Shown here in pieces: positions 10,320 to 64,000 of a stretch of DNA of 64,000 nucleotides. Position 1 is the stretch's first letter; every line of letters starts with the position of its first letter. This DNA comes from a virus, in the IMG/VR virus record IMGVR_UViG_3300011008_000009, positions 32,001 to 96,000 of that record; one strand, given 5' to 3'. The position numbers and the translations under genes were made by a program. The notes below the pieces were generated by a model, which searched no databases, was not told where the DNA came from, and was given only the letters and a program-made list of their open reading frames with translations.

Positions 10320-11547
10320 CGGTTTGTCATATATTTCTATATGTCCTGACTATCTTTTACCTTATAGGAACTCCGTTTCGAACTACGTATCAATAGTAGC
10401 CCTACTCCCAGTCTCACCCGGGATAGTCGATACACACATATTTTAGAGTAAATTTTTCCAAGTTGTGCCATTTATGACAGCCCTTATAGAAGTGGGTGTC
10501 ACTTGAGGGTAGGCTTTATAAATTTCAGAATTAGAAATGCCTTCTTTGTGCATTTCTCTTATTTTTAATACATCTTGAGTAGTTAATTTCGCTCGACCGT
10601 TATATTGTCCAGCTCTACGAAGACTAGAATGAATTTTTCTGTTTTCTTCTGTAAAAACTTCTGGCATTACTAGTTTATATCTATTACCATAATAAACATT
10701 CCAAAATGTCATTTCGTCTTTGTATGCCCATTTATAATCTTCGTAAACATCCTTCCAATACTCACCTTTTGCATATCTTTCTCTTAATTTTACCACGTCA
10801 TCATATTCGAGAGGACCGTTAGTGAATTGACCAGCAAACTCTCTATTAAAAGGATATTCTTCAGTGGTAGTTGTGAGATTTTTGTAAGTTATATGATGAT
10901 ATATTTTTCTAAAAGTTTCATATTTAATTTTTTCAGAAAATTGTTCATATAACAAGCAAATAGGAATATTTCGATGGTCTAAGATGTATTGTGCTTCTTC
11001 TTCTGTTAGATTAGCATTATTATTATCAGCTCCAGCTTTACCTTTATAAGTAGGAAAATATTTTCCACCAGGGTCAACATTATATCCATTAGGGACTAAG
11101 CTGTTAAACTCTTTAATATATTGTTCTTCTAGCACAATTGCTTCTTCAATTGAAAGGTTTCTATGTAGCACCTTAAATTCAAAGTTATCCTTTCCATATT
11201 TATGGATAGCTTCTTGAATTACTTGTCGATGTTTAAGGTCTTTAGGATAACTTTTTTCGTTTCCCCATTTTTTTTCTACATTGTTAGTAATACCAATGTA
11301 TATTTTTTGATTAATTAAATTTGTTATTTTATATACATACATATTAACACCTCGCACTTTATTACCCTCATAATAAAGTGGGATTTATGTAACGTCTACT
11401 CTAAAATTTTGGCGCGGGATTACCATATCACTGGGATTATGACTTAGGCTTCCCCGCCGCTATATAGGTACTGTTTACTTACGCTTTCGCTGCCTATATA
11501 ACGCTGCCGATAAGCAGTTAGAAGTTTACGAGCCTAACATTTCGTCA
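10320..11547 (-). mobile_element. group I intron (dnaE intron 1) carrying a GIY-YIG homing endonuclease
   Basis: Exon 1 ends ...GAU GUG AGU|, after U. The intron ends ...ACAAACCG|, after G. The RNA has GUAUCGACUAUCCC (about 10418-10431) and AAAGAUAGUCAGG (about 10345-10357), which can form P7. Confidence 0.7.
10443..11342 (-). CDS. GIY-YIG homing endonuclease
   Basis: MYVYKITNLINQKIYIGITNN...YNVDPGG. GAGGTG lies 5 nt before this ATG. The C-terminus has an HTH-like KIREMHKEGISNSEIYK. Confidence 0.85.
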   Translation of the reverse strand: MYVYKITNLINQKIYIGITNNVEKKWGNEKSYPKDLKHRQVIQEAIHKYGKDNFEFKVLHRNLSIEEAIVLEEQYIKEFNSLVPNGYNVDPGGKYFPTYKGKAGADNNNANLTEEEAQYILDHRNIPICLLYEQFSEKIKYETFRKIYHHITYKNLTTTTEEYPFNREFAGQFTNGPLEYDDVVKLRERYAKGEYWKDVYEDYKWAYKDEMTFWNVYYGNRYKLVMPEVFTEENRKIHSSLRRAGQYNGRAKLTTQDVLKIREMHKEGISNSEIYKAYPQVTPTSIRAVINGTTWKNLL

Positions 11548-26253: not shown

Positions 26254-27212
26254 CGTATTACTCAATTATTACTAATTGTACTGACCATTTCTTCACATAT
26301 AGTGCATACCGTTTCCAATTGCGTATCAATAGCAATCGTACTCTCCAACAACGGAGATGGTCGATACAGGTTAATTATTCTTTTCTAAGTTCTTAATCCT
26401 TTTAAGATTAGTAGCTTTAAAGCTGTCGTAACTGGAATATATATTTTTAAAGTCTTCGTAAATGGTTCTTAAACTTTCACCATTTGCATATCTTAATCTA
26501 ATGCTTTCAAACTGTTGGTCACTAATTTTTGCTTTTGGGTTCTTTTCTCCTGGGTTGCTATAACTTTTAGAATTATTTCTATGCCACTCTCTATTTTCTT
26601 GTGTATTTAATTCGGGTAAAATATTTTTCCAAGTTTGCCAAGTATATACTTTTTTAAAACCGGTTTTTTCTATTTTATCCTGATATTCATAATACATTTC
26701 TCTTGTAGAGATAGTCTTGGATGCCCACAATAATCTTATTTCTATAACATCTTTTTCTGTTAATTTGTGCTTAGGATGTTTTTCGCCGTGAGTATCAACT
26801 AAATCTCCACCCGGAGTAGCATTATATCCTTTTTTAAAAGTATTGTAATAATTTATCCAATAAATTTCTTTTTCTTTTAGCTCTTCTGGTTTACATTCTT
26901 CTAAAACTTCCCATTTGAAATTTTCTAAACCATATTTTCTGAACGCTTGATACAATACTTTATCATACTCTTTATTATCACTATCAAAAGCTCTTTCTCT
27001 ATGAGATTTCCAGCGATTTTCAATATTTATAGATAACCCAATATAAGCATTATTATTAATTAAATTTGTAATTTTGTATATACCAGTCATACATTTCCTC
27101 CAAGAATAATTCTTCCCACGAGATTATCCAACTTGGGACTACCCTCGTTAGCAGTCAATGAAGACTACCCCGCCGATAAGCGGAAAAGTATGTAAGGACC
27201 AGACTACCTCTT
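26254..27212 (-). mobile_element. group I intron (topo-II B intron 2) carrying a GIY-YIG homing endonuclease
   Basis: Exon 2 ends AAA GGA U|, after U. The intron ends ...GUAAUACG|, after G. Joining gives RAKG-L-GELP, the KGLGE motif. GUAUCGACCAU and AGAAAUGGUCAG elements flank the 3' core. Confidence 0.75.
26371..27090 (-). CDS. GIY-YIG homing endonuclease
   Basis: MTGIYKITNLINNNAYIGLS...RWKSH...YNATPGG. GGAGG precedes the ATG. Confidence 0.85.
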   Translation of the reverse strand: MTGIYKITNLINNNAYIGLSINIENRWKSHRERAFDSDNKEYDKVLYQAFRKYGLENFKWEVLEECKPEELKEKEIYWINYYNTFKKGYNATPGGDLVDTHGEKHPKHKLTEKDVIEIRLLWASKTISTREMYYEYQDKIEKTGFKKVYTWQTWKNILPELNTQENREWHRNNSKSYSNPGEKNPKAKISDQQFESIRLRYANGESLRTIYEDFKNIYSSYDSFKATNLKRIKNLEKNN

Positions 27213-27411
27213 ATCCTTTTGCTCTCGTTACCTCTCCCTTTACTGTTGAACGAACCTTATTAAACTCCTCATCAGTAAAGTAGTAACTTTCTACTCCTTT
27301 ATTTTCTACTATATAAAGAGGAGATTTAAGCCAATACAGTCTACCTTCTTTTATAAAGTCTGGCGCAAGATACCATAAGTTTGCCATAATTAACAATCCT
27401 ATGTGACTTCC
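27213..27411 (-). CDS. type II topoisomerase B subunit, exon 2
   Basis: GSHIGLLIMANLWYL...LYWLKSPLY corresponds to GyrB DGSHIRTLLLTFFYR...YIAQPPLY. Confidence 0.8.
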
Positions 27412-28446
27412 CACGTTACCCATTATTTCTAATGGCGCTGACTATCTGTTACTCGTTAAAATGAGAATACTCTTTCCAATCACGTACCAATAGTGACTGT
27501 ACTTCCCTTCCGGGGAATAGTCGATACAGGCTTCATTTATTAACCCAAACCTTTTGTTTTTTCTTGTATATTGGCAGGTCTTTATAGGTGCGACCCCACA
27601 ATATTTGTTGTAATGTATTGTAACTGCATCTATCTTTAAAATCATTATAGATACTTCTTGCATCTTCATTAACGTACCGTTCTCGCATTTTTAAGACTTC
27701 TTCACTTGTAAATTTTGCGCTATCTGAATTAGAGCCATCTGTTGCGTGATATTTATAGAAATTTTTATTTTCCTCGGTATAAACTTCCATTTTAATATCT
27801 TTCCAAGTGGTTCCGTCCCAAATGGATGCGAAGCTGCTAAAACTTATTCTGTCTTGAAATTGTTTATATACTTCACGGCGTCGCATATGGTTGCCATAAC
27901 ACTCTCTAATATAAGCCACATCTTCATTAGTGAGTTTCGTTCTTCCATTATTTTCACCACGACTATTTCCGCCGCCTTCATTGCAATTATAACCAAATCC
28001 TTTATAAGTATTATAATATGCAATCCAGTATTTTTCTCGTTCATCTAATTGTTCTAATGAACATTCTTCTATAATTTCAAAATCAAAAGCATCAACGCCA
28101 TATTTCTTAATGGCTATTTCAATCGGTATATCAATTTTGTTTTTATGTTCGGAAAATCTTCTCTCTATATCATTACTTTGACCAATATATGATTTTCCAT
28201 TTTCTTTCTTAGTTATTTTGTATATGCCTATCATTGCGGCACCTCCACAATTATTAGGCTTGGGTCAATTCTGATTCCCACGGGATCTGCATGCCCACGA
28301 GGGGTTTAGCTTCTCTTATCACCATAACCTTTCGGTTTAGTTGCCCGTTAGCCTTCTATAATAATGTAGGGAATATGTAAACCCTCTCTACATTTTTCAG
28401 AAGACCCCGCTGGTTAGCGGTAAAGTATTTACGGACAGAGTTACTT
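27412..28446 (-). mobile_element. group I intron (topo-II B intron 1) carrying a GIY-YIG homing endonuclease
   Basis: Exon 1 ends GAU UCG GAU|, after U. The intron ends ...GGUAACGUG|, after G. Joining gives TDADSD-GSHI, the Toprim DxDxDGxHI motif. GUAUCGACUAUUCC and ACAGAUAGUCAG elements are present. Confidence 0.8.
27533..28234 (-). CDS. GIY-YIG homing endonuclease
   Basis: MIGIYKITKKENGKSYIGQSNDIERRFSEH...YNCNEGG. GGAGGTG precedes the ATG. Confidence 0.85.
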   Translation of the reverse strand: MIGIYKITKKENGKSYIGQSNDIERRFSEHKNKIDIPIEIAIKKYGVDAFDFEIIEECSLEQLDEREKYWIAYYNTYKGFGYNCNEGGGNSRGENNGRTKLTNEDVAYIRECYGNHMRRREVYKQFQDRISFSSFASIWDGTTWKDIKMEVYTEENKNFYKYHATDGSNSDSAKFTSEEVLKMRERYVNEDARSIYNDFKDRCSYNTLQQILWGRTYKDLPIYKKKQKVWVNK

Positions 28447-29937
28447 ATCCGAATCTGCGTCAGTTGCTATGGCAATTTTACCATAATGAAGTTTTTTGCT
28501 ATCATACTTTCCAGGCAGTATGTTCATGGCGCTTAACAGTAACTTTATCTCTTCGTTCTTAAATATTTTTTCTTCATCATTGGACAACGAATTAATCATC
28601 TTACCACGAATTGCCATAAGACCATACTTAGTTATATCTCTTGCCCGCGACAGTCCGCCTAACGCCGAGTCTCCCTCACAGATAAGTAAGGTACTGTCCT
28701 GTCCAAGAAACTCTGCGTCTTTCAGCTTATCGCTAGCAAACACTTTTTTCTTCTGATTTTTCTCGATATCCTTTGTAGCATCAAGCACAGCCTGTCTTGC
28801 CTTTTCAGCCGCCTTTTCAGCTTTCTGAATCTTATTCATCATTTCGATGATACTATTAAATTCACCACTATGTTTAAGCGCAAATTCATCAAGTCCAGAC
28901 TTAAAAGCCGTACTAGCTAAAGTTCTAAGATTAGGATTATTTATTTTAGACTTGGTCTGATTAGCAAAAGAGGGGTTAACTACTTTGCAGTTTATCGCAT
29001 AAACCAGACCCTTACGAATGATTTCGGGATCGAACTCCTTCTTGGACAAACGCTTCATAGAGGTTGTAAAAGTAGTTTTCGCGCCTGTAATGGGAGAGCC
29101 ACCCTCGCTGCAAAAAAGTCCGTTGACAAATACATAGCTGGCACCCGGACCATCTGTCCACATAAAAGCTACTTCTACTTCATCAGTATCATCTTTTGCT
29201 GTTGTAATGATTGGCGCAGACATCAATGGTTTTTTGACATTGTCCTTAATAAAATCGCCTATACCATTTTCGGAATAAAACTCTACTGTTTTTCCAGTAT
29301 TAACCAAACCAACTTTAAAATGTACACCTTTATTAAGATAAGAAATATTTCTTATTTCATTACATATTCTATCATAAGAAAAGCCGTCAGTCATTAATTT
29401 AAATACTTCGGGGTCTGGAATAAACTCTACCTTTGTGCCAGTATGGGCGCTTGTATTGGGTATTTCTTCATAATTTACGAGTATTCCTTTTTCAAAGGTA
29501 GCAGTAGCCTGCTTCTTTTCTCGATAGGAAGTAACGACAAAATTTTTAGAAGACATACATACCGCGGTTCCGCCTATACCATTCAATCCAGAAGAATTTT
29601 TGTATGCATTTTTGTCAAATTTTCCTCCAGTATGACTTTCGGTATAAATAGACACCAGAATATTTCTTCCGTCTTTAATACCAAAAGGTACTCCTCGTCC
29701 GTCGTCTATAATTGTAATTTTATTGTTTTGTTCATCAACAGCTATGGTTATTAAATTACCATATCCTGCCAATGCTTCATCTGTAGAATTGTTGACTATT
29801 TCTTTAAATGCTTGATAAATACCATCGGTATCATCAGAACCGAGATACATCTGTATCCTTGAACGCATAGCTTCACGCGTTTCTAAGTGTCTTATGCTAT
29901 CTATACCATAATTATCCATTCGCATTCTCCTTTTCAC
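28447..29937 (-). CDS. type II topoisomerase B subunit, exon 1 (GHKL ATPase, transducer, start of Toprim)
   Basis: EIVNNSTDEA, IDDGRGVP, GLNGIGGTA, then CEGDSALGG...IAIATDADSD. Confidence 0.85.
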
Positions 29938-30003: not shown

Positions 30004-30345
30004 TTAAAGTATATTCAGATACTTAAGTAAGTTTCTATACTCTCTGTCTAAAAGCAGCGAATCATCTTCGGTATCATCTTTCTTGAAAGTTCCTTTTACG
30101 CTATATTTTATAATAGGAATTTCACCGTACTTTTCAAAATACTTTTCGGAAAGATTTGCTGCCTTATCTATGAGTTCCTGTATCTCTTTCTGCTTACTTT
30201 CTTTCTCTGCCTTCAGCGCTGCCTTTCTCTTGTCTTCCGCCGCCTTTTCAGCATTGGCTATACAATCGCGTTCGCACTGGTTTCTTTCAGCTACGGTGTT
30301 GTATCTCTTACCACATATTCCACAAGTATAAATCTGTTCTCTCAT
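30004..30345 (-). CDS. small Zn-finger / coiled-coil protein
   Basis: CGICGKRY...ERNQCERDC followed by a K/E-rich helix. Confidence 0.55.
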   Translation of the reverse strand: MREQIYTCGICGKRYNTVAERNQCERDCIANAEKAAEDKRKAALKAEKESKQKEIQELIDKAANLSEKYFEKYGEIPIIKYSVKGTFKKDDTEDDSLLLDREYRNLLKYLNIL

Positions 30346-31517
30346 TTTTTAATACCTCTCTTTAATAATATTATTGTAGTGAAACCTATTGTATATAATC
30401 CAAGTAATACCCAAAGTACCGGCATATATGCTCCCGTAACACCAAATACAATAGAACTAATATTGTTACCTACTAATCCTGCTATTCCCCAAGCAGTTAA
30501 TGACAGTCCGTGTATTGCACTAAGTCTGTTCATTCCATAGATATCAGATAACAATGTTGGCATATTACTAAAGCCAGCGCCATAAGTGCTAGAAATAATG
30601 CATAGACCAATAATAGTAACTATAATATTCTGTGTTAATAGCATAAGTACCATTGTGGCTACGGATATTAGAAAAATTACTAAGTAGATGTTCACTCTAC
30701 TATTAAGTTTATCAGAAATTGCGGAAAAAGTCAAACGTCCGAGTCCATTGCAAATTCCCATAATAGCAACTGCTGTTGCCGCGAGTCCAGGACCACAATT
30801 AATTGATACTAGTAAAGGAGATGCAATAGATATTAACGCTAGACCACACGCAATATTTAAAAAGAACATTAACCAAATTTTTCTAAATTTGCTGTCCTTA
30901 AACATAGTTAAAACTTTAAAATCATCTTTTGTAGTTTGTTCTACATAATTAGGCGGTCGCTTAATTAGTATAGAAGCTAATATTAAAGGTATTACTGATA
31001 TGGCGGCAAAACCTAAAAATGTAACAGTTAGATTAGTTGTTTCAAGTAAAAAGGTAAGTATAGGAGTAGCTATTGTACTTGCAAAACCAAAGCCCATAAT
31101 TGCTATTCCAGTTGCCACACCTTTGTGTTCAGTAAACCATAGCATTAGGTTTTTAATAGGTGTTAAATATCCTATGCCAAGTCCACATCCCATAAGAACA
31201 CCATATCCTAAGTATATAAGCCATATGGATTGCAACCAAGAGCCGAGCGCCGTAACGAGCAGACCGCCGCAGAAGAACAGCACACATAATCGAGAGCTTA
31301 GCTTAATATTGTGTTCAACTAATTTACCCAAGAACGCTGCCGACATTCCAAGAAAGAATATAGCTAAACTAAATGCGAACTGTACCCAAGCCACTGACAT
31401 TCCGACAGCCGCCGTTACGGGGTTTACGAGTAAACTCCAGGCATATACCGAGCCTATTGTACAGTGGATACATAAAGCTGGAATGGCGCCATGTATCCAT
31501 TTTCCTAATTTTCCCAT
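30342..31517 (-). CDS. MFS transporter, oxalate/formate antiporter (OFA)-like family
   Basis: About 12 hydrophobic segments. SVYAWSLLVNP and GLGIGYLTP...WFTEHKGVATGIAIMGFGFAS resemble OFA-family signatures. The start at MGKLGKW is preceded by AAGGAG and overlaps the nrdG stop. Confidence 0.75.
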   Translation of the reverse strand: MGKLGKWIHGAIPALCIHCTIGSVYAWSLLVNPVTAAVGMSVAWVQFAFSLAIFFLGMSAAFLGKLVEHNIKLSSRLCVLFFCGGLLVTALGSWLQSIWLIYLGYGVLMGCGLGIGYLTPIKNLMLWFTEHKGVATGIAIMGFGFASTIATPILTFLLETTNLTVTFLGFAAISVIPLILASILIKRPPNYVEQTTKDDFKVLTMFKDSKFRKIWLMFFLNIACGLALISIASPLLVSINCGPGLAATAVAIMGICNGLGRLTFSAISDKLNSRVNIYLVIFLISVATMVLMLLTQNIIVTIIGLCIISSTYGAGFSNMPTLLSDIYGMNRLSAIHGLSLTAWGIAGLVGNNISSIVFGVTGAYMPVLWVLLGLYTIGFTTIILLKRGIKK

Positions 31518-31999
31518 AAAACAACTTCTCCTTTTAATAGTGATTCTTGCACATCTATAATGCATTGATTGCTTGAACCTCTAAATTTTAGTGTAATATC
31601 TCGCTTATCTATCTCAAAAGGTCCGTCAACCAAAACGTCTATATATTGTAGTATTCTTAAATTTTTAGATAGTTGTTCAAAAGTAAAACCAGTATAGCAC
31701 CAAATAGTTTTGTCTTTATACTCATTCTTTATATCCTGTAAAAAAGATAATAATGTTTCATTACTACTATGATATATAGGGTCGCCGCCGGTTAGTGTTA
31801 AACCTTTAATGTAAGGATTTTTTAATAACTGTTTAATATTATTAATTTCAGCTTCTCCAAAAGGCTTTCCTGCATTAAAGTCCCAACTTTCTGGATTATG
31901 ACAACCTTTACAATGGTGGTCACAGCCAGAGAGCCAGAGGGTTACTCTGACTCCTGGACCATTAGCTACATCAAATTCATCTATTGCTAAATAATTCAT
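31505..31999 (-). CDS. nrdG: anaerobic ribonucleotide reductase activating protein (radical SAM)
   Basis: GCDHHCKGCHN is the CxxxCxxC cluster. GLTLTGGDP. It starts 2 nt after the nrdD stop. Confidence 0.85.
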   Translation of the reverse strand: MNYLAIDEFDVANGPGVRVTLWLSGCDHHCKGCHNPESWDFNAGKPFGEAEINNIKQLLKNPYIKGLTLTGGDPIYHSSNETLLSFLQDIKNEYKDKTIWCYTGFTFEQLSKNLRILQYIDVLVDGPFEIDKRDITLKFRGSSNQCIIDVQESLLKGEVVLWEN

Positions 32000-32001
32000 A
32001 C

Positions 32002-32493
32002 TTACCTCTTCCAGTTCGGTAATTCTTTTGAGTGCTTATATCTCATTTCAACTTCTTGCTGTTTACCTTTATTAAAAGCAGTTGTATAATTTCCTGTTAA
32101 ATAACCTGTTACTCGTCTTAATCTGCTAATGTCTGCGCTTCCACACTGTGGACAAACCTCATTAATTTCATCAGTATAACCGCATTGATTACACATATCA
32201 TTAGGAACATTAATAGCAAAATAAGGAACGTCCTTATCCATAGCGTAATTTACTAATGTTTCAAGTGCTTCGAGGTTATTTTTTACTGTACTTTCTAACT
32301 CTACATAAGTTATGCATCCAGCATTTGAATAATTAACGAGCTGTGCTTCTATATCTATTTTCTCAAAAGGATTTAATTTTTTCCATACCGGAACGTGCAT
32401 AGAGTTAGTGAAGAACTCTTTATCAGAAACATTCTTTATAATTCCATACTTTTCTTGGAATTTCTTCATCGCGGTATAGCATAAATTCTCAGC
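32002..32493 (-). CDS. nrdD: class III (anaerobic) ribonucleotide reductase NrdD, exon 3
   Basis: The frame is open upstream of the track ATG and reads AENLCYTAMKKFQEKYG. A Zn-ribbon CNQCGY...CPQCG follows, then the glycyl-radical motif RRVTGYL. Confidence 0.85.
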   Translation of the reverse strand, partial: AENLCYTAMKKFQEKYGIIKNVSDKEFFTNSMHVPVWKKLNPFEKIDIEAQLVNYSNAGCITYVELESTVKNNLEALETLVNYAMDKDVPYFAINVPNDMCNQCGYTDEINEVCPQCGSADISRLRRVTGYLTGNYTTAFNKGKQQEVEMRYKHSKELPNWKR

Positions 32494-33445
32494 CGTTTTT
32501 ACCCTCGGTTTCCCGATATTTGATAGGGGACTAGACTATATTATCATCTTATTATCTTTCTCATATAATAAGAGCCTTATCTTTTGCTTTATCAGCTACT
32601 CTACTCGCTTCTTCACTTTAGATTTTAACTAAAGCTATGCTTTCGATAGTCGTTAGAGAACAAAACCTTTTTCATCATATTCTTTAAGAAATCTATAATA
32701 GTAACCTTTTCTTGGTTTAGTTTTTAGTTTGTGGTTGCATTGGTACAAGATACCAGTTTTTGTCATACCAGTTTCTCTTGTTGCTTCACCAACCGAACCA
32801 TATTTTTTTATAAGATTAAAATTAAGGTCGAATTGACATACTGCTATAGATTGATTATCATCCCAACTCTTAGCATTTACTGCTAGCCCATCTCTATAAG
32901 CGCCTTGAGTGTTTTCTTGGACCGTGCCCCATTTGAGATTTAAATAATTGTTATTAGTTTTATCATTATCTAAATGTAACACTATTGATTGATTGTTAGG
33001 ATTTGGAACATAGGCCTCGGCAACCAATATATGTACTCTTCTTTGTCTTTGTCCAGTTGGATAAGTTATATTGCAATAACAATATCCATTACTTTTATTA
33101 ACAAAAACTGACTTTTTAAACATTTTATTATTGCCGTAATCTTTGTAAATTTGACCGTCGGGAGTAATATAATCTGTATTACTGTCTTTTATTAATCTTA
33201 GTTCTTCGGTTATTAAGTTTTTGTCTATTAGTTGATTTTCCAATTTTCTTTTAGCCATTTTTATCACCTCACTTTAAAGTGAAAGGTAACTTATTATACT
33301 CTAAAGAAAATCTGTGATAAGGTTTTATCCTACGGGATTAGCCTGCCTTACGGTTTAGCCTCTCTTACCATCTTATTACGATTGCCCGTTTAATAAGGTT
33401 ATTTTTTCACATAATCACTTATGCGACACCCAATCTGAGAGTTTT
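32494..33445 (-). mobile_element. group I intron (nrdD intron 2) carrying an HNH homing endonuclease
   Basis: Exon 2 ends ACA CCU|, after U. The intron ends ...GUAAAAACG|, after G. Joining gives YYTP-AENLC, equivalent to E. coli YSTPSENLC. CUAACGACUAUCGAAAGC and GAUAAUAUAGUCUAG elements are present. Confidence 0.8.
32653..33258 (-). CDS. HNH homing endonuclease
   Basis: HILVAEAYV...VLHLDNDKTNNNYLNLKWGTVQEN is the HNH core. The C-terminus has an IENR/HTH-like GSVGEATRETGMTKTGI. The start at MAKRK follows GAGGTGA. Confidence 0.8.
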   Translation of the reverse strand: MAKRKLENQLIDKNLITEELRLIKDSNTDYITPDGQIYKDYGNNKMFKKSVFVNKSNGYCYCNITYPTGQRQRRVHILVAEAYVPNPNNQSIVLHLDNDKTNNNYLNLKWGTVQENTQGAYRDGLAVNAKSWDDNQSIAVCQFDLNFNLIKKYGSVGEATRETGMTKTGILYQCNHKLKTKPRKGYYYRFLKEYDEKGFVL

Positions 33446-33967
33446 AGGTGTATAATATACTCCAAAATTCAGCTTATACTTTTGCTTAAATTCTGCACAT
33501 CTAGTTTTGAATAACTGTTCAATGCGCTTAGCCAGCTCCATTCCTTCGGGTTCGGTATGGTCTTTACCAATTAATATCTGTAAAGTTTCTGCCAATCCTA
33601 ACTGACCAATAGCAAGTGTTCCGTGCTTTAACGCACTACGAATACCCTCTTCGGGTTTGTAGCCAAGCATAAGACCGTTTTCGTACATAAAGGTCGCACT
33701 TTCTTCGTTTTGAGAACAAATCCACTCAAAGCGCTCTATTAATGTATCTTTTGCTTCGCTTATCTTTTTATCAAGTAATTGTAGGAACAGAGAGGAAATG
33801 TCATTGTCATATTCATAATTACACAATTCTTTAGCCATCATAGCAATAGTTGGCATAATAATGGTAACAGGACAAATATTTCCACGTCCGTCTTTAGTTT
33901 GCGGGTTAACGCCTTCTTCCGCATTAATATCGGCGCCATTGTATGTACGACAACCCCTTGTCGTAAT
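33446..33967 (-). CDS. nrdD: class III ribonucleotide reductase NrdD, exon 2
   Basis: ITTRGCRTYNG...DGRGNICPVTIIMP corresponds to E. coli SPMGCRSFL...GRNNLGVISLNLP. Confidence 0.8.
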
Positions 33968-34801
33968 CATTAGACTATGTCATCTTCCAATATTGTAATA
34001 ACCTTTATTGGAAGCCTATCGTTTTGGGGACAATGGACCCCTACTCTACTCACTTCTTCATATTAGTATTTTTCTAATATTATGCTTTCGATAGTCGTTG
34101 AGCTTTTAATATTAATAAGTATTACTTAAAATATCTACGAACACCAATTTTTCCTAAATCTTTATGGTGCCAATCTTTATAAAACCAACCTCTATTAATT
34201 GAAGCCTGAATGGTATTTCTTGACATAGGATAATCTATCAATAAATCTTCTCTACTAGAATATTCCTTGATAAGACTTCCAGTACTATAATCAAACACTT
34301 GATAGTAGGCATCTCCAGAACGGTGAGGTACATGAACGTGACGTAAATCGTTTCTGAAAGCGTGTAAATCATTTTCACTTCTTGTTACCCATTCTAAGTT
34401 ATCAGCCGCATTGTTTAATTTATTACCATCTTTGTGATTTACAACTAATTCTTCTTGGTAGCCATCACAAAAGTGATACGCAACCAAACGATGTATAAAA
34501 AAACGTTTCTTTACCGGAGCATATAATACTACTCGTCTATAACCACAAGTATTTATATCTCCTTTAAGTATTTGTTTGGTTTTATAATTTCGCACATTTC
34601 CTAAATTACTAACTTCATAATAGGTTTCATAATTTTTAATTGGTTTCCAAATTTCTTTCATACGCCCAATTCCTCCTTAAGAATATGGCTTTTATTAATA
34701 TATTTAGCACACGAGTAACGTCTTAGACGCTTCCTCCGTTTAGATAGGTTTATTTATACTACATTACTGTAGCAGACCACAGGTTGGTTTATGGTCGATA
34801 C
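33968..34801 (-). mobile_element. group I intron (nrdD intron 1) carrying an HNH homing endonuclease
   Basis: The RNA contains CUAUCUAAACGGAGG...CGUGUGCUAAAU (T4 td-like P3-P6 region), CUCAACGACUAUCGAAAGC and GAAGAUGACAUAGUCUAAUG| at the 3' end. The proposed join is KTY|ITTRGCR, with U before the 5' splice site and G before the 3' splice site. The 5' junction is less certain, by a few nt. Confidence 0.7.
34122..34661 (-). CDS. HNH homing endonuclease (NUMOD4-like N-terminus)
   Basis: EIWKPIKNYETYYEVSNLGNVRN...HRLVAYHF...VNHKDGNKLNNAADNLEWVTRSEN. AAGGAGG precedes the ATG. Confidence 0.85.
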   Translation of the reverse strand: MKEIWKPIKNYETYYEVSNLGNVRNYKTKQILKGDINTCGYRRVVLYAPVKKRFFIHRLVAYHFCDGYQEELVVNHKDGNKLNNAADNLEWVTRSENDLHAFRNDLRHVHVPHRSGDAYYQVFDYSTGSLIKEYSSREDLLIDYPMSRNTIQASINRGWFYKDWHHKDLGKIGVRRYFK

Positions 34802-37003
34802 ATAGGTTTTCGGATCCTCTCTGTTGTATCCAGCATTAGTGGACCAGTCTACATTAGCATAATTAGGATAAAGTCTTTTCGCAGTTGACCGTAATGCTAA
34901 TTTAAATAAATCATAATTTGGGTCTCCAGGCTTTCTATTAACTCCTATCATACACTGGAAAATTCCACAAGGAAATACAGGTGTTTTATGAAGTTTACCT
35001 ACACCCTTAATAGAACCGTGTAAAAGAGCCTCGGTCACCATTCTACCTTCGGTAAGTGTACAAGTACCATAGTTGATAGAAGTAAAAGGAAGCTGATTTC
35101 CTGCTCTACTTTGAAGAGTATTTAGGTTGTGATACATACTCTCAGCAGCTTGTTCGGTTTCTTTTATGGTGTGTTTAAGAGCGTACTTATACGCCTTATC
35201 ACAGCTATAAACTTTTCTATCATCTATACTAAATTTATCAATAGCTTCATAAGGAGGAAGCTGATATTTTGTAAGTAAATTTTCTTTTTCATCTTCCAAG
35301 TCAACATCTTCTATAAATGCAAGTGCATCTATATAGTGTTTATAAAAACTCTTTCTTACAAAAGGAACCATTGTCCAATCTAAGTGCGAAGCGGATACTC
35401 CACCGAACTGCTGAAGGCTCTGTAATTGGAAGATAACAGCTAAAAGTTGAAAAGCTGTATTAATAGACTGAGGCGGGCGCACGTCTGTCTGTCTAGTATT
35501 AAATCCTTCTTTAAATAGTTTGTCAAAGGGAATTGTAAGGCAATTACCAGTTGGAATACCATTCTCAAGAACAAAAGCATGTTCATCTTCTACATTCAAA
35601 CACCATACATCGTGTAATTCGGTGTCCTCTTGAGTTATATCCTTTACATACCAATTGAATTTATTTGAATGTTGTCCAAAAAATTGATAATTTTTAGTGT
35701 ATCCTCTAACAGTATAGTTGGTTTCTTGCCCAGTCTTATCTTTTATTGAATTTACATACAAACCAGCAACTGGGAAATATTCTTCCACAAAATCACATAA
35801 TTCTTTGCTTGTAAATTGGATGCTATAAATAGGTTTTCCCGTAGTAGCGGAAACGCTATGAGTTCCGTCAGCATCGTACAAACCGTGGATAAAACTAATT
35901 AGACATTCCAATGGTAGATTGGTGAAATCTGGAATGGTTTTGTCATATTTAATACCTGTAATTTCCGGCTCTTGTGAAGAACAATTTAAACCATATCCTA
36001 TTTCTTGGAAACGATATAAATATTTCGCTTTATCCTTACATAATTTTACTTTAGTGAAATTTGATTTATAATATTTCTTTTCTTTTTTAGAATATCTTGT
36101 TTCAATAATTCCGTCCCCCATAATAAAACCATAGCACCAATATTCTTTTCCGAGTAAACTTAAAGATTCAAAATCAAAATCTTCCCAAAACCACGGAGAG
36201 TCTAAAAGTTTATCATTAATAGACAATCCTTCTTGGAAGTCCCCGTCTATATTTATCCACCTGTGGTCTTCTGTTGATTTTATGGTTATTTCTGTCCTAT
36301 TCTTTTTTAAAGTATAAGACAATAATTTTTGTTTTCCATGGTAGTTTACAGTTGCTTTCCTCCAAACTCCACTTGGAGTTAGCACAGTAACGATATCCCC
36401 GTCTTTAAAATTACTAAAAGCCTTAACTCCTTCAGAGGTTATAAATCTTGTAGAGGGGTCGAAACAGTTATGCGAACCAACTGCGTAATCAGTTAAATCG
36501 TGTATGTAAATGATATTGTCTATATGATTACGGCGCGAAGTCTCTGACATATAATCTTCCAATGCTATTTTCTTCATCAGCAGATCAGTTACTTCACCCT
36601 TTCTACCATTAAAAGACTTTTCATCTACGTTAGCGTTTTGGTGTTGAGGGTCTGCCGCCGTTAATTTCTTCTTAACGTCCTTCATTAAAGAAGCATATCT
36701 ATCTCTTGCTAAAGCGTGACGATAGCGATAGGTAATGAAGTTTTTAGCCATTATCTGGTCATACTTCATTAACTCTTGTTCTATAATATCTTGAACATCT
36801 TCTATGAAAACTTGCTCACCATATTTATCTGCTACTATTTGTGTGATTTCTTCTGTCATTTTCCGCAAATCTTTTGAGAAATCTTTTGTTGAGCATTCGG
36901 GATAGGTGTCGAGCGCGGCATTGGTGAGAGCATTGTAAATTTTACTTGGGTTAAAAGATACTTTACTTCCATTTCTTTTGATTGCATATTTTGTTGTACT
37001 CAT
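34802..37003 (-). CDS. nrdD: class III ribonucleotide reductase NrdD, exon 1 (ATP-cone and N-terminal barrel), interrupted in frame by an intein
   Basis: ATP-cone YAIKRNGSKVSFNPSKI. ...YIHDLTDYAVGSHN[intein]CLTIPFDKL. The track ORF tail after ...KTY (34754-34801) is read-through into the intron. Confidence 0.85.
35543..36466 (-). mobile_element. intein (308 aa) with a LAGLIDADG endonuclease domain inside NrdD
   Basis: Starts CFDPSTRFITSEG (block A). STEDHRW is block B. YGFIMGDGI and IHGLYDADGT are the LAGLIDADG motifs. Ends FVLENGIPTGN, followed by extein Cys. Confidence 0.85.
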
Positions 37004-39594: not shown

Positions 39595-40044
39595 TTATTC
39601 TATATGGTCACGAGCATAAACGGCTAACGCATCAGCTTTCTCGTTATATTCGTTTCCACCGTGACCTTTTACCTTTTCTATTATTATATCACATTTTTCG
39701 TAAAAAGTCAACAATTGTTCCCATAATCCACGATTTTCGACAGGCGTTCTTTTGGAAGTTAGCCAACCATTCTGGCGCCATTTAATATACCATTTTTGGT
39801 TTATACAATTATAAATATACGCGCTATCTGTATATATTATATTTTTTTCTTTTTCTTTACTATTATTAATAATATATTGTAAAGCCATTATTACTGCTGT
39901 TAATTCCATTTGATTATTAGTAGTATTTTTAGAGTTAGTGTACTCTGTACAAACTTGTTCATTATCATTGTTTAATACTACCATTGCCGCGCCGCCATTC
40001 CAAGTTCCATTGGTGCTACAAGCTCCGTCAGTGTAAAATATCAT
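39595..40044 (-). CDS. rnhA: ribonuclease HI
   Basis: IFYTDGAC...NNQMELTAVIMAL...IYTDSAY...GHGGNEYNEKADALA gives the DEDD catalytic residues. Confidence 0.85.
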   Translation of the reverse strand: MIFYTDGACSTNGTWNGGAAMVVLNNDNEQVCTEYTNSKNTTNNQMELTAVIMALQYIINNSKEKEKNIIYTDSAYIYNCINQKWYIKWRQNGWLTSKRTPVENRGLWEQLLTFYEKCDIIIEKVKGHGGNEYNEKADALAVYARDHIE

Positions 40045-40114: not shown

Positions 40115-40143
40115 ATATTATCATAATTTAACAATATTGTCAA
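40115..40143 (-). promoter_or_regulatory. leftward promoter of the divergent pair
   Basis: Minus strand reads TTGACA-17 nt (ending TATGA)-TAATAT. Confidence 0.6.
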
Positions 40144-40147
40144 GTGA

Positions 40148-40176
40148 TTGACTTTTTTAAAATTTTATGATATAAT
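40148..40176 (+). promoter_or_regulatory. rightward promoter of the divergent pair
   Basis: TTGACT-17 nt (ending TATGA)-TATAAT. GGAGG lies at about 40187-40191, before the ATG at 40200. Confidence 0.7.
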
Positions 40177-40199
40177 AATAATAAATGGAGGAATAGAAA

Positions 40200-40448
40200 A
40201 TGAATACATTTACTATACAAATAAATAATGATATTAATAGTAGAGAAGCTGTGGGTTTATCTCAGGCTTTATCTCCTATAAAATCAGAAATATATTTACA
40301 CATCGAAGACCGTAAGGTCAATGCTAAGTCTATCTTAGGTTTGCTTAGCTTAAGTATTAAAAAAGGAGATATACTTAGTTTTGATGTAATCGAAGACAGC
40401 GAGGTAGACGGTATTCGCGCGGCAGTAGAGAAAATATTAACAGAGTGA
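40200..40448 (+). CDS. HPr/Crh-like phosphocarrier-fold protein lacking the active-site His
   Basis: VNAKSILGLLSLSIKKGDILSF matches the HPr Ser46 region (N-L-K-S-I-M-G-V-M-S-L-G). Asn13 sits at the His15 position, in DINSREA versus GIHARPA. Confidence 0.7.
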   Translation: MNTFTIQINNDINSREAVGLSQALSPIKSEIYLHIEDRKVNAKSILGLLSLSIKKGDILSFDVIEDSEVDGIRAAVEKILTE

Positions 40449-40458
40449 GGTTTGAATA

Positions 40459-42942
40459 ATGGCAGATAAAAATTATTTATATGATAGTGAAGATTATTTA
40501 GAAAGACCTTCACATTACGATAATTTTTTTAATCCTATTATTACACCTTACAAGTTTCAAAACGTAAACGAAGAAAAGTATAATAATAATGTTGACCTTA
40601 TTAATAAGGAATTTCCTAAATCTATTTTACAAGATAGCACGGGACATTGGATAAGAATTATCAACACAGAAGATTATATAGATGAAGAATCTGCCACTAT
40701 TGAAGCAGAAATAATTAAGAAGTATGGAGAATTGGTTCAAAATTACTATGGTTTAGGCAATCGTAATTTATTACAAAATCCAGACGTAGATTATGAAGTA
40801 ATTCGTAGCTATGGATATGAAGTATCTGAAGATTCGATATTATATCCACAGAGCGCCTTGCGTTGGAGTGAAACCTACAATAAATGGTTTGCTATTTGGT
40901 ACACTCCTATAAAAGAAGATGGGTCTATAATTAGCAAAGCCAATGCAAAAAGTTATTTAACTACTTTATTTACTAGTACAGACTTCCTGGTGGCAGATAA
41001 AGAAGGTAATAATATAATTTTAAGAATAGACAAAGAGTTAGGTTTCAGTGCCATAGACGTTATTAGTGTAGATAAAACCTACGAAACTGATAATGTTAAA
41101 AGAGTAAAACAGGAATTATCCAATTGGAGTACTGCACTTACTCAGGCTCAACAGTATTACTGGGATTTGGTGGAAACCTATGGAAATGTAGACGGAAGCA
41201 ATTATCTATTCATTGATGAAGATAAAAATATTTTTAGTAGGACTAACAGAAAGTCCTACTTTACCTTTAAAGTAGAAAATAATAATTATACCGATTTAGG
41301 AATAGCATTAGATGAAGAAATAAGTAGTCTCCAAGATTGGCAACAAAATACCGATTATAAAATTGGAGATTATGTGCTACACAGCGAGACAATAAGCGGG
41401 GTTGAAACGCCCTGTTTGTACTATTGTGTAAAGGATAATAATAGTGGAGAAACTTTTGAAGTAGCTACCATTGTTAAAAGAAAACAATATGGACAAGAAG
41501 TAGATGTCTTGGTGGCTCAATGGAAATTAGTATCTACCGAATATGGAAAAGAATTAAACAAAATCCTAGAAAGATTTCCAAATTTCAATCCAGAAGGATA
41601 TTATAGATTTGTTTTTCCTGCTCTTGAGAGTCGGCGCCCGCGCCAATATTATCCCAACGGTGAATTAAAGCCTGATGCACAGCGTGGTAGCCTATATATA
41701 AATCAAAGTAATAATGAAGAAAATCGGTTCTTTGCCATTACTCCTTGTTATGCTTACGACCCAAACACAGGGAAAGACAACATCGAGTATAAAATTATTG
41801 CGAACGCGGATATTTCGAGTAATTATATCGAAGAAGAAGAAGGATATGTCGGACCTAAAAAATATATAACTTCCGCGCAGAAAATAATAGTTTACTTTGA
41901 GAAACTTGCTTTAGCTAATAATAATATAGTATCAATGAGTTTTGATAGTAAAGTAACCAAGATAACCAAAGATGCTTTTTATAAAAGAGATGACTTGCTA
42001 AAGGTTTCAATACGCCAAGGCGCCCAGTCAATAGGTAACAGAGCTTTTGGCGGCTGCACCAATCTTCAGCAGGCTTTGCTTCCTAGTAGTTTAGTTATTA
42101 TGGGAGACGGTTTATTTGCAGGTTGCCGCCTATTGAAACGAGCCACGGTGCCGCCTAATATTATTTCTTTAAATGCAACTTTTAATGGTTGTGAAAATTT
42201 AGAAAGCGCAGTATTAAGTCCTTTTACAGTTGAAATAGGAGACAGTGCTTTTTCAAACTGCTTGAATTTAAAGAAGGTTTATAACACAAGTAAAGTTTCT
42301 ATATTAGGTAAATCAGCCTTTTTAAATTGCGAAAATTTAAAGAATTTTACAATTAATAAGGAAATAATTAGCATACCCGACAGAGCTTTCAAGAATTGTA
42401 AAAATTGTCATTTTACCCTTGAAGAAAGAGAGGAAGGAGAAGAGTTAGTAAGTTTAGGAATAAGCAGCTTTGAAGGCTGTGAACAGCTAACCAAAACTTT
42501 TGATTTATCCAAAATTCAACTCTTAGGTGACGGCGCCTATAAGAATTGCTTTAATATACAAGAAATGAATTTCAATTTTGGAGACGATTATGTAAGTAAA
42601 CTTATTCCTAAAAATTTTTGTTATGGTTGCTATAATCTGAAAACTATTAATTTAGGAGAAGCAGAAATACTTGACGACGGATGTTTCCAAAATTGTGCTT
42701 CTTTAAGAGAAGTTACTATCCCTACTACAGTTAAACAATTGGGTACTAACGTTTTCTATGATTGTTTTAATTTAAAGACATTAAAAGTTCCCACTGTTTA
42801 TCCTAGTGGTGTTGGCGCCTGGATAGAAAATCCTAATATAGTTTCAGACGCAAATAGAATAAATTGGATAGACCCTACCTTTACAACGGTTACTAATTAC
42901 AATGGGGATGTGATTAAATGGAAGAAAGCAGTAATACATTAA
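40459..42942 (+). CDS. large surface/adsorption protein with C-terminal BspA-type leucine-rich repeats
   Basis: The C-terminal roughly 330 aa are repeats of AFxxCxNLxxhxhPxxhxxIGxxAF. One CBM5/12-like segment: WQQNTDYKIGDYVLH...LYYCV. Confidence 0.7.
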   Translation: MADKNYLYDSEDYLERPSHYDNFFNPIITPYKFQNVNEEKYNNNVDLINKEFPKSILQDSTGHWIRIINTEDYIDEESATIEAEIIKKYGELVQNYYGLGNRNLLQNPDVDYEVIRSYGYEVSEDSILYPQSALRWSETYNKWFAIWYTPIKEDGSIISKANAKSYLTTLFTSTDFLVADKEGNNIILRIDKELGFSAIDVISVDKTYETDNVKRVKQELSNWSTALTQAQQYYWDLVETYGNVDGSNYLFIDEDKNIFSRTNRKSYFTFKVENNNYTDLGIALDEEISSLQDWQQNTDYKIGDYVLHSETISGVETPCLYYCVKDNNSGETFEVATIVKRKQYGQEVDVLVAQWKLVSTEYGKELNKILERFPNFNPEGYYRFVFPALESRRPRQYYPNGELKPDAQRGSLYINQSNNEENRFFAITPCYAYDPNTGKDNIEYKIIANADISSNYIEEEEGYVGPKKYITSAQKIIVYFEKLALANNNIVSMSFDSKVTKITKDAFYKRDDLLKVSIRQGAQSIGNRAFGGCTNLQQALLPSSLVIMGDGLFAGCRLLKRATVPPNIISLNATFNGCENLESAVLSPFTVEIGDSAFSNCLNLKKVYNTSKVSILGKSAFLNCENLKNFTINKEIISIPDRAFKNCKNCHFTLEEREEGEELVSLGISSFEGCEQLTKTFDLSKIQLLGDGAYKNCFNIQEMNFNFGDDYVSKLIPKNFCYGCYNLKTINLGEAEILDDGCFQNCASLREVTIPTTVKQLGTNVFYDCFNLKTLKVPTVYPSGVGAWIENPNIVSDANRINWIDPTFTTVTNYNGDVIKWKKAVIH

Positions 42943-60961: not shown

Positions 60962-61022
60962 CTTTTTTAGACCCTATTATAAGCTCCTTCACCTAATGGT
61001 AGAAAATATTAAGGAGGGATAC

Positions 61023-64000
61023 TATGACCTATATCCAAACTACCTCTCCTAGGACGGCAGTATTCTACGGCGAATCAATGGCTGATTTAGCCTTAATGCC
61101 GACTACTACCAAAATAGGTGAGGGAGAGTATATACACGCCTTAGCCCAAGAAGGCAGTTATGCTATGATATTGCTCACAGACGGCTTGAAGAAATTTATG
61201 CTCCGTAGCACTGGCTGGGTTGAAGTAAAAGACCAAGGCGGTGGCGGTAGTTGGTTCGAGCCAGGCGGCAACACAACCTTTGCAGAATTGCCTACTCCAA
61301 GTGGAGATAATGTTGGTATTGTATATAATGTTACAGATGCCTTTACTACTGATGAGCGTTTTAATGAAGGCGCTGGGATAGATTATCCGGCGGGAACTAA
61401 CGTTGCGATAGTAAATGTTGGTACAGACTCTACTCCAGTGTATAAGTTTGATGCCTACGCGGGCGCCTATACGATTGATGATGAATTGTCGTTAGTGTCG
61501 GAGAACCCTGTGCAGAATAAGGTTATAACTAGTGAGATTAATGGGATTAATACTGCGTTACAAAATAAACAAGATACGCTTACATTCGATCAGCAACCTT
61601 CACAAGGTAGCAACAATCCTGTTAAAAGTGGTGGACTATATAATTCTCTTGGTGGTAAGTCTGCACTTACATTTTTACAGGCTTATGATGCTTCCGTTGC
61701 ACAACTTTCGTCAGGCTTTGTTTTCACGCCGCAAGGTGCCTACAATATGTACGAAAATGTTATGAGAACAATACCCTCTGTTGCCGGAAGCATAGCGGGT
61801 CAGTTAATTAATTCTGCAATACCACAAGTTATGCCAAAAGTTTATTGGTTTGCTGTTCAAGGTTCAGATTGGGACGAATATGGTGAGGCAGTAATAGATT
61901 TACAGAATGATTTCCAAATTGTTATTTCTCAAACTAATTATAACCAATTAATAGTACAAGATGGCTTGAATTACTGGAACGATTACGCGATGGAACTTCA
62001 TACCGTTAATACAGATGAAAGTGGGAATATTACCACAATACAACTTGTATGTGATATTTATAATACCCAAGATCCACCTAGTAACCCTCCTACTTATATG
62101 GAGTTTTTAATAATATCAAGCCCAGCGACCAAAAATGGAGCAGCTTCGCTTTCAGCTTTATATGAGTCGCCAGGATTAAAGGCTCTTGCTGATAAACCTA
62201 ATATAGATGACACTCCTAGTTGGACCAATACATATAGTTCGATGCGTATTGACGAAAAGGTCGCCGCGCTGATAGACGATACCACAGCCGCGCAGAACAA
62301 GACATACAGCTCGGCAAAAGTGGAAGAGAAAGTCGCCGGCGAAGAGATCACCACCACAGCCACCGGCTCTGACCTGACCCTTTCCACAAGCTCCGGCAAC
62401 ATCAACGCACTCACGGTTTACGGCAAGTCTGAAGTCGTGGACGGAAGCATTAAGAGTGCGGGTGAGGGGTGGAGTACTGTTGATTTAGGGACACTGACGT
62501 GGGGCTATAATTCATTCTCAGCTTCAAACCCGTTTTTTTATGCTTCTGACATAAACATCAAATTGGCTACAACGCAGGCAATAAATGAAAATCTTGTATG
62601 TGAGGCATATAACACATATTCCTTTAACACTGTGCTGTACGATGTAAATATAGACAAAGCAATCGGTGTAAATAGTGTTGATAATGCATATAAACTTGTC
62701 GCAACAAACACTGATTACGCCGACGCAGCCTCATTCAAAACAGCAATGTCTGGCATTATCCTCGCATACCAACTCGCAGACCCTACACAGGGCAACACAA
62801 TAGCTGTCAAGACCGACAATGGCTCGGGCATAGACGGCACTATGGCTGTATTCACAACGGGGGCACCGCTGTATGGTGTTTCTGATACCGTAAGAGATGT
62901 TATGCAGTGGAACGGTTCGAACGGTGAGGTTACAAAGAATTGTGCGAAAGGTAGATTAGCGGATTTGACATGGACTTTAGACAATGATAGACAGGCTTTC
63001 TATACTAACGATTTGACCAATATAATTAAGCCTGCAATCAACTTTAATAGTCGACCAAATCTTTTAATAGACGGCTACACCGTAGTCACTCCAAGCCAAG
63101 TTCTGACAAGCACCACTGACTTGCGAATATCAGCATACCATTATGGGCAATTCGACATACTTACGCTCCGAAACCTCGCGTACACAACAGTCTCCGACTT
63201 TGTAGCTGGTCTCGGTGACGCAGAACTCATCTACGAACTCGCAACACCTACAACTGAACAGCTGACAACAGCAGAGAACGCAAGCATTGCAGGGCTTCGC
63301 ACTTTCGCGCCACAGACACACGCGCAGAATAATGCAGGTGCGACGATGACAATTGAAGCATACGCTGGAACAGCGAACGGCAAGGCAATCAACTCTATAC
63401 AGTCGGACCTACAGGAACAGATTAACAACATTAAAAACACAATAAAGCCAAGAGTTTATGCGTTCTACGTTGATCCAAACGATAGCAATCCTGCAACTCG
63501 CGTTCATCCGTATTATAACACAAAATACGGCTGTGATAATTTACTTTATATAAACGCATATATGGACTACGAAAAAGACGAGTTCAACTATGGTTCATGG
63601 GAAGATTTTATCAAAGAGTTTTTCAAGCCTTGTATGCTTGCTTATGATGGTCACGTAGATTATTATCTTGACCCAGATGATTATGAGACTAAACTTGACG
63701 GTGGTACAAGTGATATTAAGGATATGACCTATAACGGTAATGTTATGGTTCAAATTAAGAAACTTTGGGTTAAACGTTGGACAACAAACGGAAAATACTA
63801 CTGTATTATTTCTGACAAAAAACTTGACAAATCTTTTAAGGCTTTTGCACATCACGATATAAAAGGTAATGTACTTGACTATATTTATCGCGCTTGTTAC
63901 GACGGCAGCTATGACGGAACAAGACTACGCTCTATCAGCGGCATTGACTATCATAATCTCAATGCATTAACTGTTGACAAAATAATGTCAAATACTACTC
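61023..64000 (+). CDS. large tail fibre/receptor-binding protein, 3' end outside the window (absent from the ORF track)
   Basis: ATG at 61023 follows AAGGAGGG. I read no in-frame stop to nt 64000 (about 992 codons). Fibre-type motifs ENPVQNKVITSEINGINTALQNKQD, SNNPVKSGGLYNSL and TYSSMRIDEKVAALIDD. Confidence 0.75.

Follow-up and report, generated by a model that had tools for sequence, protein, structure and literature searches.

A phage-borne HPr-like protein lacking the active-site histidine and retaining the Ser46 motif of Gram-positive HPr

The window analysed here, a 64,000-nucleotide stretch of viral DNA (positions 32,001 to 96,000 of the IMG/VR record IMGVR_UViG_3300011008_000009), carries a small gene whose 82-aa product resembles HPr of the phosphoenolpyruvate:sugar phosphotransferase system (PTS), lacks the active-site residue His15, and keeps the motif around Ser46 that is found in HPr of Gram-positive bacteria. 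HPr, HPr kinase (HPrK/P) and CcpA constitute the central carbon-sensing switch of Firmicutes, which also controls virulence and much of gut fermentation. The protein is no one-off: it belongs to a large phage-borne family in which position 15 is hypervariable and whose members abound in large phages from metagenomes of the human gut and of ruminants.

Homology to HPr, already claimed in an earlier note made from the letters of this DNA alone, is borne out by several comparisons. The open reading frame (ORF) starts with ATG, and its product matches the Pfam family PF00381 (PTS-HPr) over residues 3-70 with E=3.6e-12 and 46.6 bits, above the gathering cut-off of 23 bits. When PDB sequences were searched with phmmer, the best matches were HPr chains, 3le1_A (1.1e-9) and 1rzr_T (1.8e-9), Bacillus subtilis Crh scored ~7e-6, and Escherichia coli HPr only ~0.8. 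The phmmer alignments place N13 opposite His15, R15 opposite Arg17 and S44 opposite Ser46, in agreement with the residues named in the earlier note; the active-site loop reads DINSREA in the window protein vs GIHARPA in HPr, and the Ser46 loop VNAKSILGLLSL vs VNLKSIMGVMSL. Against the NCBI HPr family TIGR01003, a subfamily model, the protein scores 40.5 bits, just under the trusted cut-off of 47.9. The AlphaFold2 model, for which 36 family sequences served as input, has a predicted local distance difference test (pLDDT) value of 94.2 and a predicted template modelling score (pTM) of 0.81, and its predicted topology is the beta-alpha-beta-beta-alpha-beta-alpha open-faced beta-sandwich of HPr. 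All 37 PDB matches found by Foldseek at E<=0.001 are HPr or Crh; the top match has a template modelling (TM) score of 0.85 and a root-mean-square deviation of 1.9 Å, and TM scores to HPr structures range from 0.80 to 0.87. The Pfam, PDB-sequence, AlphaFold2 and Foldseek matches therefore place the homology far beyond chance, and the window protein is a true HPr homologue.

The family emerged only through an exhaustive HMMER search and a broader profile. A word-index search returned only five close relatives, all in the same genomic position, and no match was obtained for the window protein among GenBank phages (tblastn) or PHROGs, or for the narrow alignment of its clade in IMG/VR. Within this clade the proteins are 61-96% identical, and they are at most ~45-50% identical to other phage HPr-like proteins. 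The exhaustive search, performed on 1.84 billion representatives, yielded 465 proteins at E<=1e-3. Among the best 150 of the 465 a wide range of residues stands at the hypervariable His15 position (N 34, H 27, T 16, E 16, Y 10, others). In an alignment of the matches of normal HPr length, to which the window protein and the HPr and Crh of B. subtilis were added as references, Arg17 was present in 137 and Ser46 in 153 of the 155 sequences. In IMG/VR a copy is present on 43 contigs, the majority of 70-170 kb; none of the 43 copies has His at position 15, and all 43 have Ser46. Every one of the nine neighbourhoods of His15-less relatives that were read lies on a phage contig, and in five or six of them structural Pfam families of the SPβ type (YonD, YonB, YomW, YomU tube, YonJ, YonG) are present. 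Bacterial genomes present a different picture, since the best 80 matches among 185,579 GTDB species genomes comprise 48 canonical HPr proteins with GLHARPAT, 31 Tyr15 proteins with GLYARPAT and a single phage-type sequence. No cultured phage with a copy was found by tblastn with three family members, which returned only uncultured 'Bacteriophage sp.' records from human faeces. The only named phage that seemed to have an HPr, 'Staphylococcus phage SA 1306 Kay', was rejected; it is an UNVERIFIED_ORG record containing host ptsH-ptsI with the canonical GIHARPAT. It is also worth mentioning that one viral contig of 42 kb (IMGVR_UViG_3300031867_000163; L130, L138) contains two HPr-like copies ~10 kb apart.

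Close counterparts in public databases are the uncharacterised HPr-domain proteins of uncultured phages in UniProt and IMG/VR, which share the fold and the phage origin and are known by automatic names only. Three such proteins, weakly similar to the window protein, were found in BFVD (A0A8S5S213, A0A8S5S9E0 and A0A8S5PSI8). The last of these (Siphoviridae sp. ct96x5, 81 aa) bears the name 'Catabolite control protein A' and has a TM score of 0.63 to the HPr-fold model; the name is probably an annotation error derived from an entry of a CcpA-HPr complex, because CcpA is a protein of the LacI/GalR family and several times longer.

A comparison of 194 phage-type with 28 canonical HPr sequences indicates which parts of the protein have been lost in the family and which have been kept. 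At the His15 position the canonical proteins have H in 100%, the phage type N in 26%, T in 20%, S in 8%, and others; the window protein and all five close homologues have Asn there. Gly13, found in 100% of the canonical sequences, is Asp in 66% of the phage type, Ala16 (93%) gives way to Gly or Ser, Pro18 (100%) to variable residues, and Thr20 is likewise not kept. The phage-type sequences, only ~30-45% identical to the window protein, nevertheless retain R17 (89%), N43 (94%), A44 (84%), K45 (91%), S46 (99%), G49 (100%), L51 (92%) and S52 (95%), and their Ser46 motif in helix 2 can be written as Asn43-x-Lys45-Ser46-[IL]-[LI]-Gly49-x-Leu51-Ser52. The window protein carries the flanking residues typical of Gram-positive HPr (N43, K45, S46, G49, M/L51, S52), and its variant with L48 and L51 is that of the HPr of Clostridia, not of Bacilli. 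E. coli HPr differs at this site (SASAKSLFKLQTL), so the HPr fold itself does not require the motif; enteric bacteria are not known to have HPrK/P. The conservation pattern therefore shows that the Gram-positive regulatory face has been selectively kept and the PTS active site discarded. Because it has neither His15 nor the Gly13-x-His-Ala-Arg-Pro loop, the phage protein cannot carry PTS phosphate. The residues at positions 13 and 15 favour a tight turn and a helix N-cap, which can be read as retention of the loop for structure and not for catalysis. In the HPr-CcpA complex (PMC10287919), HPr packs on CcpA through Ile47, Met48 and Met51, and its phosphorylated Ser46 is bound to Arg304 and Lys308; the phage protein has Ile45, Leu46 and Leu49 at the CcpA-contact positions, a conservative set. 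The representative search also revealed a recurrent Glu15 type, GLEARPV combined with VNAKSIMGMMSL (P0035, P0046, P0062, P0078, P0079 and similar proteins), the Glu15 of which could mimic phosphohistidine.

Among characterized proteins the phage protein most resembles, by sequence and structure, the HPr of Thermoanaerobacter tengcongensis (3LE1) and of Priestia megaterium (1RZR), with E ~1e-9 and 33% identity. With canonical Gram-positive HPr (PtsH) it has in common the Ser46 motif, of the Clostridia type, and it differs in the absence of His15 and of the surrounding loop. Crh of B. subtilis offers a putative parallel in function: it too is an HPr-fold protein of ~85 aa in which residue 15 cannot be phosphorylated (Gln in Crh, Asn in the phage protein) and in which Arg17 and the VNAKS-I-x-G-L-x-SL Ser46 loop are present, and in the CcpA-Crh-DNA complex (1zvv_J) its structure superposes on the phage model with TM 0.80. 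However, identity in structure-based alignments is only 19-28%, Crh keeps the Gly13, Ala16 and Pro18 that the phage protein has lost, and it is encoded in a Bacillus chromosomal operon, unlike the phage gene with its place in a tail or structural-type operon. The Crh equivalog model NF010354 gives the window protein 39.4 bits vs a cut-off of 123, B. subtilis Crh itself reaching 165.2 bits. The label 'Crh-like' in the earlier note thus stands as a functional analogy and fails as a statement of Crh membership; by this analogy the phage protein may be regarded as a putative functional counterpart of Crh. It is not a Crh orthologue, and the loss of His15 in the phage family is independent of Crh. 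Another case of His15 loss with a retained Ser46 loop is provided by the cellular Tyr15 proteins of Butyricicoccus, Agathobaculum and Intestinibacillus, but these keep Gly13, Ala16, Arg17 and Pro18 and reside in bacterial genomes, whereas the phage type has Asp or Asn at position 13 and a variable position 18. The Tyr15 matches in GTDB genomes include the loci L038-L062 and others, with the match near 8001..8243.

The gene lies just beyond a switch at ~40.1 kb, where strand use and GC skew both flip, and it is the first ORF of the + strand there, as the earlier note had stated in calling it the first gene of a rightward operon. The consensus promoter of which that note spoke was also recovered, as a strong promoter of the σA type: TTGACT-17-TGaTATAAT (40148-40176) agrees with the consensus at 11 of 12 positions and has an extended -10 element. 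The -35 hexamer, the TG, the -10 hexamer and the GGAGG sequence are invariant across four homologous loci whose proteins are 61-96% identical, and the remaining spacer is variable. The rate ratio of nonsynonymous to synonymous substitutions (dN/dS) against three homologues is 0.06-0.20, and the gene is under purifying selection; together with the conserved promoter and GGAGG this points to a gene that is real and expressed. The coordinates of the gene and of the neighbouring features are collected in the table.

Table. Features of the window at and around the HPr-like gene
Feature	Position	Strand	Basis
HPr-fold protein, 82 aa; N13 = His15 position, R15 = Arg17, S44 = Ser46	40200..40448	+	ORF call, Pfam, phmmer, AlphaFold2, Foldseek, dN/dS
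-35 hexamer TTGACT of the rightward promoter	40148..40153	+	Consensus scan; invariant in L001, L002, L004, L005
Extended -10 TGaTATAAT of the rightward promoter	40168..40176	+	Consensus scan; TG and TATAAT invariant in homologous loci
Shine-Dalgarno sequence GGAGG, 8 nt 5' of ATG	40187..40191	+	Sequence reading; invariant in homologous loci
Divergent leftward promoter TTGACA-17-TAATAT with TG, for RNase H and the replication arm	40115..40143	-	Consensus scan
827-aa BspA-type leucine-rich-repeat (LRR) protein, downstream gene of the same operon	40459..42942	+	Pfam LRR_5, E=1.1e-59
RNase H, divergent, first gene of the leftward arm	39595..40044	-	PHROG 531 RNase H, E=3.7e-47; syntenic in all close homologues
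Selfish elements in replication genes	6915..13482, 26371..29937, 32002..37003	-	GIY-YIG, LAGLIDADG and HNH ORFs

The LRR gene begins 11 nt after the stop codon of the HPr-like gene with no terminator in between, and the same order of the two genes is found in L001, L002, L003 and L005. Past the LRR gene the right arm (+) consists of a tightly packed series of large proteins of no known kind, one of which combines CBM5/12 with F5/8-type-C domains and is also matched by a tail-protein PHROG. Almost no Pfam or PHROG match was obtained for the large proteins of this arm or for the neighbours that are conserved at other loci, and tblastn with one right-arm protein, and likewise with one tail-tube protein, returned no match. 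The left arm (-) encodes RNase H, a dNMP kinase-like protein, DNA ligase, NrdD/NrdG, GyrA/B, PhoH, DnaB, RecJ, PolIII-alpha, ThyX and dUTPase. The GTCAA core of the leftward promoter is invariant in the homologues, and at 40115..40176 only 4 nt separate the -35 hexamers of the two near-consensus promoters, which point away from each other and are both kept in related phages. A defence role was also considered, and no PADLOC match was found for the HPr-like gene or its two downstream neighbours.

When the neighbours of the HPr-like gene were clustered across 31 loci, two recurring arrangements became apparent. In the first one, present in 13-15 of the 31 loci, the gene occupies a fixed place in a tail module of the SPβ type: on its 5' side there are genes for YomW-like and YomV-like proteins, the YomU tail tube, a protein of ~105-118 aa and a helical protein of ~190 aa, and on its 3' side genes for a YomN-like protein (~160-180 aa) and then for a large tape-measure-like protein. 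Here adjacent genes overlap by ~10 nt or leave tiny gaps, and no strong promoter serves the HPr-like gene alone. The slot between tail tube and tape measure is occupied by the His15-less gene in L006, L014, L097, L098 and L099-L135 (for example, L101 3645..8780). The second arrangement, represented by the window clade, L008, L115, L116, L131 and L138, places the gene at or near the junction with the nucleotide-metabolism arm. In the window clade, in L008 (TTGACT-17-TATAAT) and in L116 (a TTGATT variant), a near-consensus promoter precedes the ATG by ~22-24 nt, and the same promoter lies ~120 nt upstream of the HPr-like gene in L131. In both arrangements the downstream genes resemble tail, adhesin or lysin genes. 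The gene was also encountered at other sites, beside a T4-type portal gene and a methylase gene, and between YonJ-like and YonG-like genes. In L008/L009 (GCA_947628715.1, CANRAW010000001.1, 167 kb) the translation of the called gene differs from that of the query P0031, perhaps owing to another start codon or genetic code in that assembly. In SPβ itself the tail-module slot contains no HPr-like protein, and YomT of SPβ (75 aa, encoded downstream of the tail-tube gene), considered as a diverged HPr-like protein, was rejected at an hhalign probability of 0.15%. Also rejected was the possibility that the gene is a frameshift extension of the upstream chaperone-like ORF in the style of gpG/gpGT, since it lies in frame -1 in L006 and L134 and in +1 in L101, and in the window clade there is no upstream ORF with which it could be fused. 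The context allows a late metabolic effector, a delivered protein packaged in the tail, or a role in assembly within the phage.

The carrier phage has no DNA match to the window among 50,697 GenBank phages (megablast). Its PolIII-alpha is 39% identical over 99% of the length to YorL of Bacillus phage SPβ and relatives, and a 96%-identical copy of the HPr-like protein is encoded on a 139-kb contig in the same gene order, which together point to a large SPβ-like phage. No SPβ structural Pfam family was matched by the right-arm proteins of the window, although many other carriers of the HPr-like gene do match such families. By their names, the samples with close relatives seem to come from studies of the ruminant gut; a more distant relative was found in a Hadza human gut sample. 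The closest cellular HPr proteins, by the best GTDB matches, are those of Clostridia (Ruminococcus, Oscillospiraceae, Butyricicoccus), and an oxalate/formate antiporter-like (OFA) transporter of the phage shares ~54% identity with proteins whose names come from metagenome-assembled genomes of Firmicutes and Bacillales. From the polymerase, the promoter with GGAGG, the closest HPr and the OFA transporter, the host is probably a member of the Bacillota, the phylum where HPrK/P and CcpA function; the Firmicute host proposed in the earlier note agrees with this, by evidence (the YorL-like polymerase, Clostridia as the source of the closest HPr, and the transporter) that is indirect though consistent.

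The reading of these data that we tentatively prefer, giving it almost but not quite even weight, is that the protein is a non-PTS analogue of HPr that engages host HPrK/P and/or CcpA through the face formed by Ser46 and Arg17. According to this proposal, a phage paralogue of HPr without His15 would have lost PTS phosphate transfer and retained the Gram-positive regulatory face, and host HPrK/P would recognise it at Ser44, the equivalent of Ser46, and presumably phosphorylate it. The phosphorylated protein might then stand in for P-Ser-HPr or Crh at partners of the CcpA type, or the protein might be a decoy competing with host HPr for the kinase and CcpA; with either option, infection would rewire the carbon-catabolite signalling of the host, and the earlier note likewise put forward mimicry or titration of this signal as a possibility. 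Phosphorylation, the identity of the partner and the choice between mimic and decoy are all inferred.

Several points weigh against this proposal. E. coli HPr has Ser46 too and is not phosphorylated on it, and therefore the serine alone proves nothing. In most relatives the gene is promoterless and packed between the tail tube and the tape measure, with some stop/start overlaps, which is unusual for a host-takeover gene and fits poorly with a classical early one. Gene-content searches of the window turned up neither a kinase nor a CcpA-like gene nor any further gene of the PTS. Asp at HPr position 13 could disfavour the kinase, as a negative charge near residue 15 does so in some species. Nor is the window enriched in catabolite-responsive (cre) operators, with one match vs 0.95 expected in 64 kb, not conserved. 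This match to the cre consensus (WTGNAANCGNWNNCW), at 40384-40398 within the HPr-like gene, is destroyed in L001, L002 and L005 and was taken as chance; a cre was present in only one of 13 related loci.

The main rival explanation is that the HPr fold was co-opted for tail morphogenesis, as an assembly factor or minor virion protein with no link to catabolite signalling, in which case the partners of the HPr-like protein would be encoded next to it, namely the chaperone-like protein, the YomN-like protein and the tape measure. The fixed slot in the SPβ-type tail module (in 13-15 of the 31 loci), the abutting or ~10-nt overlapping genes without a strong promoter of the HPr-like gene's own, and, in the window operon, the LRR proteins, the CBM5/12 and F5/8-type-C protein with its tail PHROG and the large proteins of no known kind are all consistent with such a role. 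We nevertheless hold it to be rather unlikely, given that the conserved residues are those of the partner face of HPr (R17 and the Ser46 motif) with no new surface conserved, and that the gene is also found outside tail modules, namely next to the T4-type portal and methylase genes, between the YonJ-like and YonG-like genes, and at the divergent junction behind a σA promoter. Furthermore, the corresponding slot of SPβ is without an HPr-like protein, yomT showing no similarity, and no consistent frameshift relation to the upstream ORF was found.

The same conserved residues bear on two other explanations. The helix-1 and helix-2 face of HPr serves Enzyme I (EI), EIIA and other partners alike, and its retention with Arg17 after the loss of His15 would also suit a dead-end HPr that binds EI or EIIA and accepts no phosphate, blocking the uptake of PTS sugars and signalling to PRD regulators and sparing phosphoenolpyruvate, with no involvement of Ser46 phosphorylation. 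Such a PTS block seems improbable, because the family has a degenerate EI-facing loop, without conservation of Gly13, Ala16, Pro18 and Thr20, and the residues that are kept belong to the Gram-positive HPrK/P-CcpA motif and not to the general HPr surface. A sensor or effector delivered in the virion or made late, phosphorylated by HPrK/P according to fructose-1,6-bisphosphate and ATP of the host, could couple the energy state of the host to the lysis-lysogeny decision or late development via a phage or host LacI-type regulator. This is compatible with the preferred engagement of HPrK/P and CcpA, and it would accord with the retained Ser46 face, with the SPβ-like nature of the carriers and with the placement adjoining the tape measure, a protein which in siphoviruses enters the cell; it is, however, purely inferential, and with no regulator partner, integrase or arbitrium genes seen in the window we judge it very improbable. 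Returning to the proposal of a regulatory HPr analogue, its boldest form would make the His15-less proteins dedicated effectors of SPβ-like phages in gut and rumen Clostridia, made with and possibly packaged in the tail, phosphorylated by host HPr kinase, and taking over or reading out the HPrK/P-CcpA axis, a combination to which only a low probability can be assigned.

Other features of the window deserve mention. The OFA-family transporter, a protein of 407 aa of the major facilitator superfamily (30342..31565, -), adjoins nrdG (31505..31999) and the split nrdD (32002..37003); it is 52-61% identical to related transporters, mostly unnamed metagenomic proteins, and is kept in related phages. 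As the reductant of class III ribonucleotide reductase is formate, the transporter could be a phage-supplied formate importer for the synthesis of deoxynucleoside triphosphates. NrdD is encoded in three pieces (32002..37003, -) with a LAGLIDADG intein and HNH ORFs between the pieces, PolIII-alpha (- strand) also in three pieces with GIY-YIG and LAGLIDADG ORFs between them, and two further GIY-YIG ORFs lie near gyrB and gyrA. A ClpP-like protease is encoded within the replication arm (5048..5854, -), and a tail-fibre-type protein with a Peptidase_S74 (endosialidase chaperone) domain at the far left (56..1117, +). At the other end, 61003..63999 (+), a frame of at least 999 codons is open to the right end of the window, with G+C climbing from ~0.33 to 0.42 and no Pfam match.

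Regulators of the HPr/Crh type are known, and what is undescribed is a phage lineage with a degenerate active-site loop and placement in a tail module. In the full-text literature no published study of phage HPr-like proteins was found, which, with the missing PHROG match and the lack of a cultured-phage copy, agrees with the remark in the earlier note that this had not been described as a phage function; the papers in which HPr and phage did occur together dealt with hprA, with host ptsH, or with 'HPR' in the sense of hyperplastic regions. The phage genes known to reshape host metabolism encode mostly enzymes; a phage pseudo-HPr, if the proposal is true, would be a signalling mimic at the top of the CcpA regulon. 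As an effector it would represent the first manipulation of Gram-positive catabolite control by a phage through a phosphoprotein mimic, perhaps coupling the energy state of the host to phage development, and if its placement among tail genes means a role in the virion, the HPr fold would have been put to a new use. The family may let phages tap host carbon-catabolite signalling, and the window provides a concrete 82-aa protein with which to ask whether and how phages manipulate Gram-positive catabolite repression.

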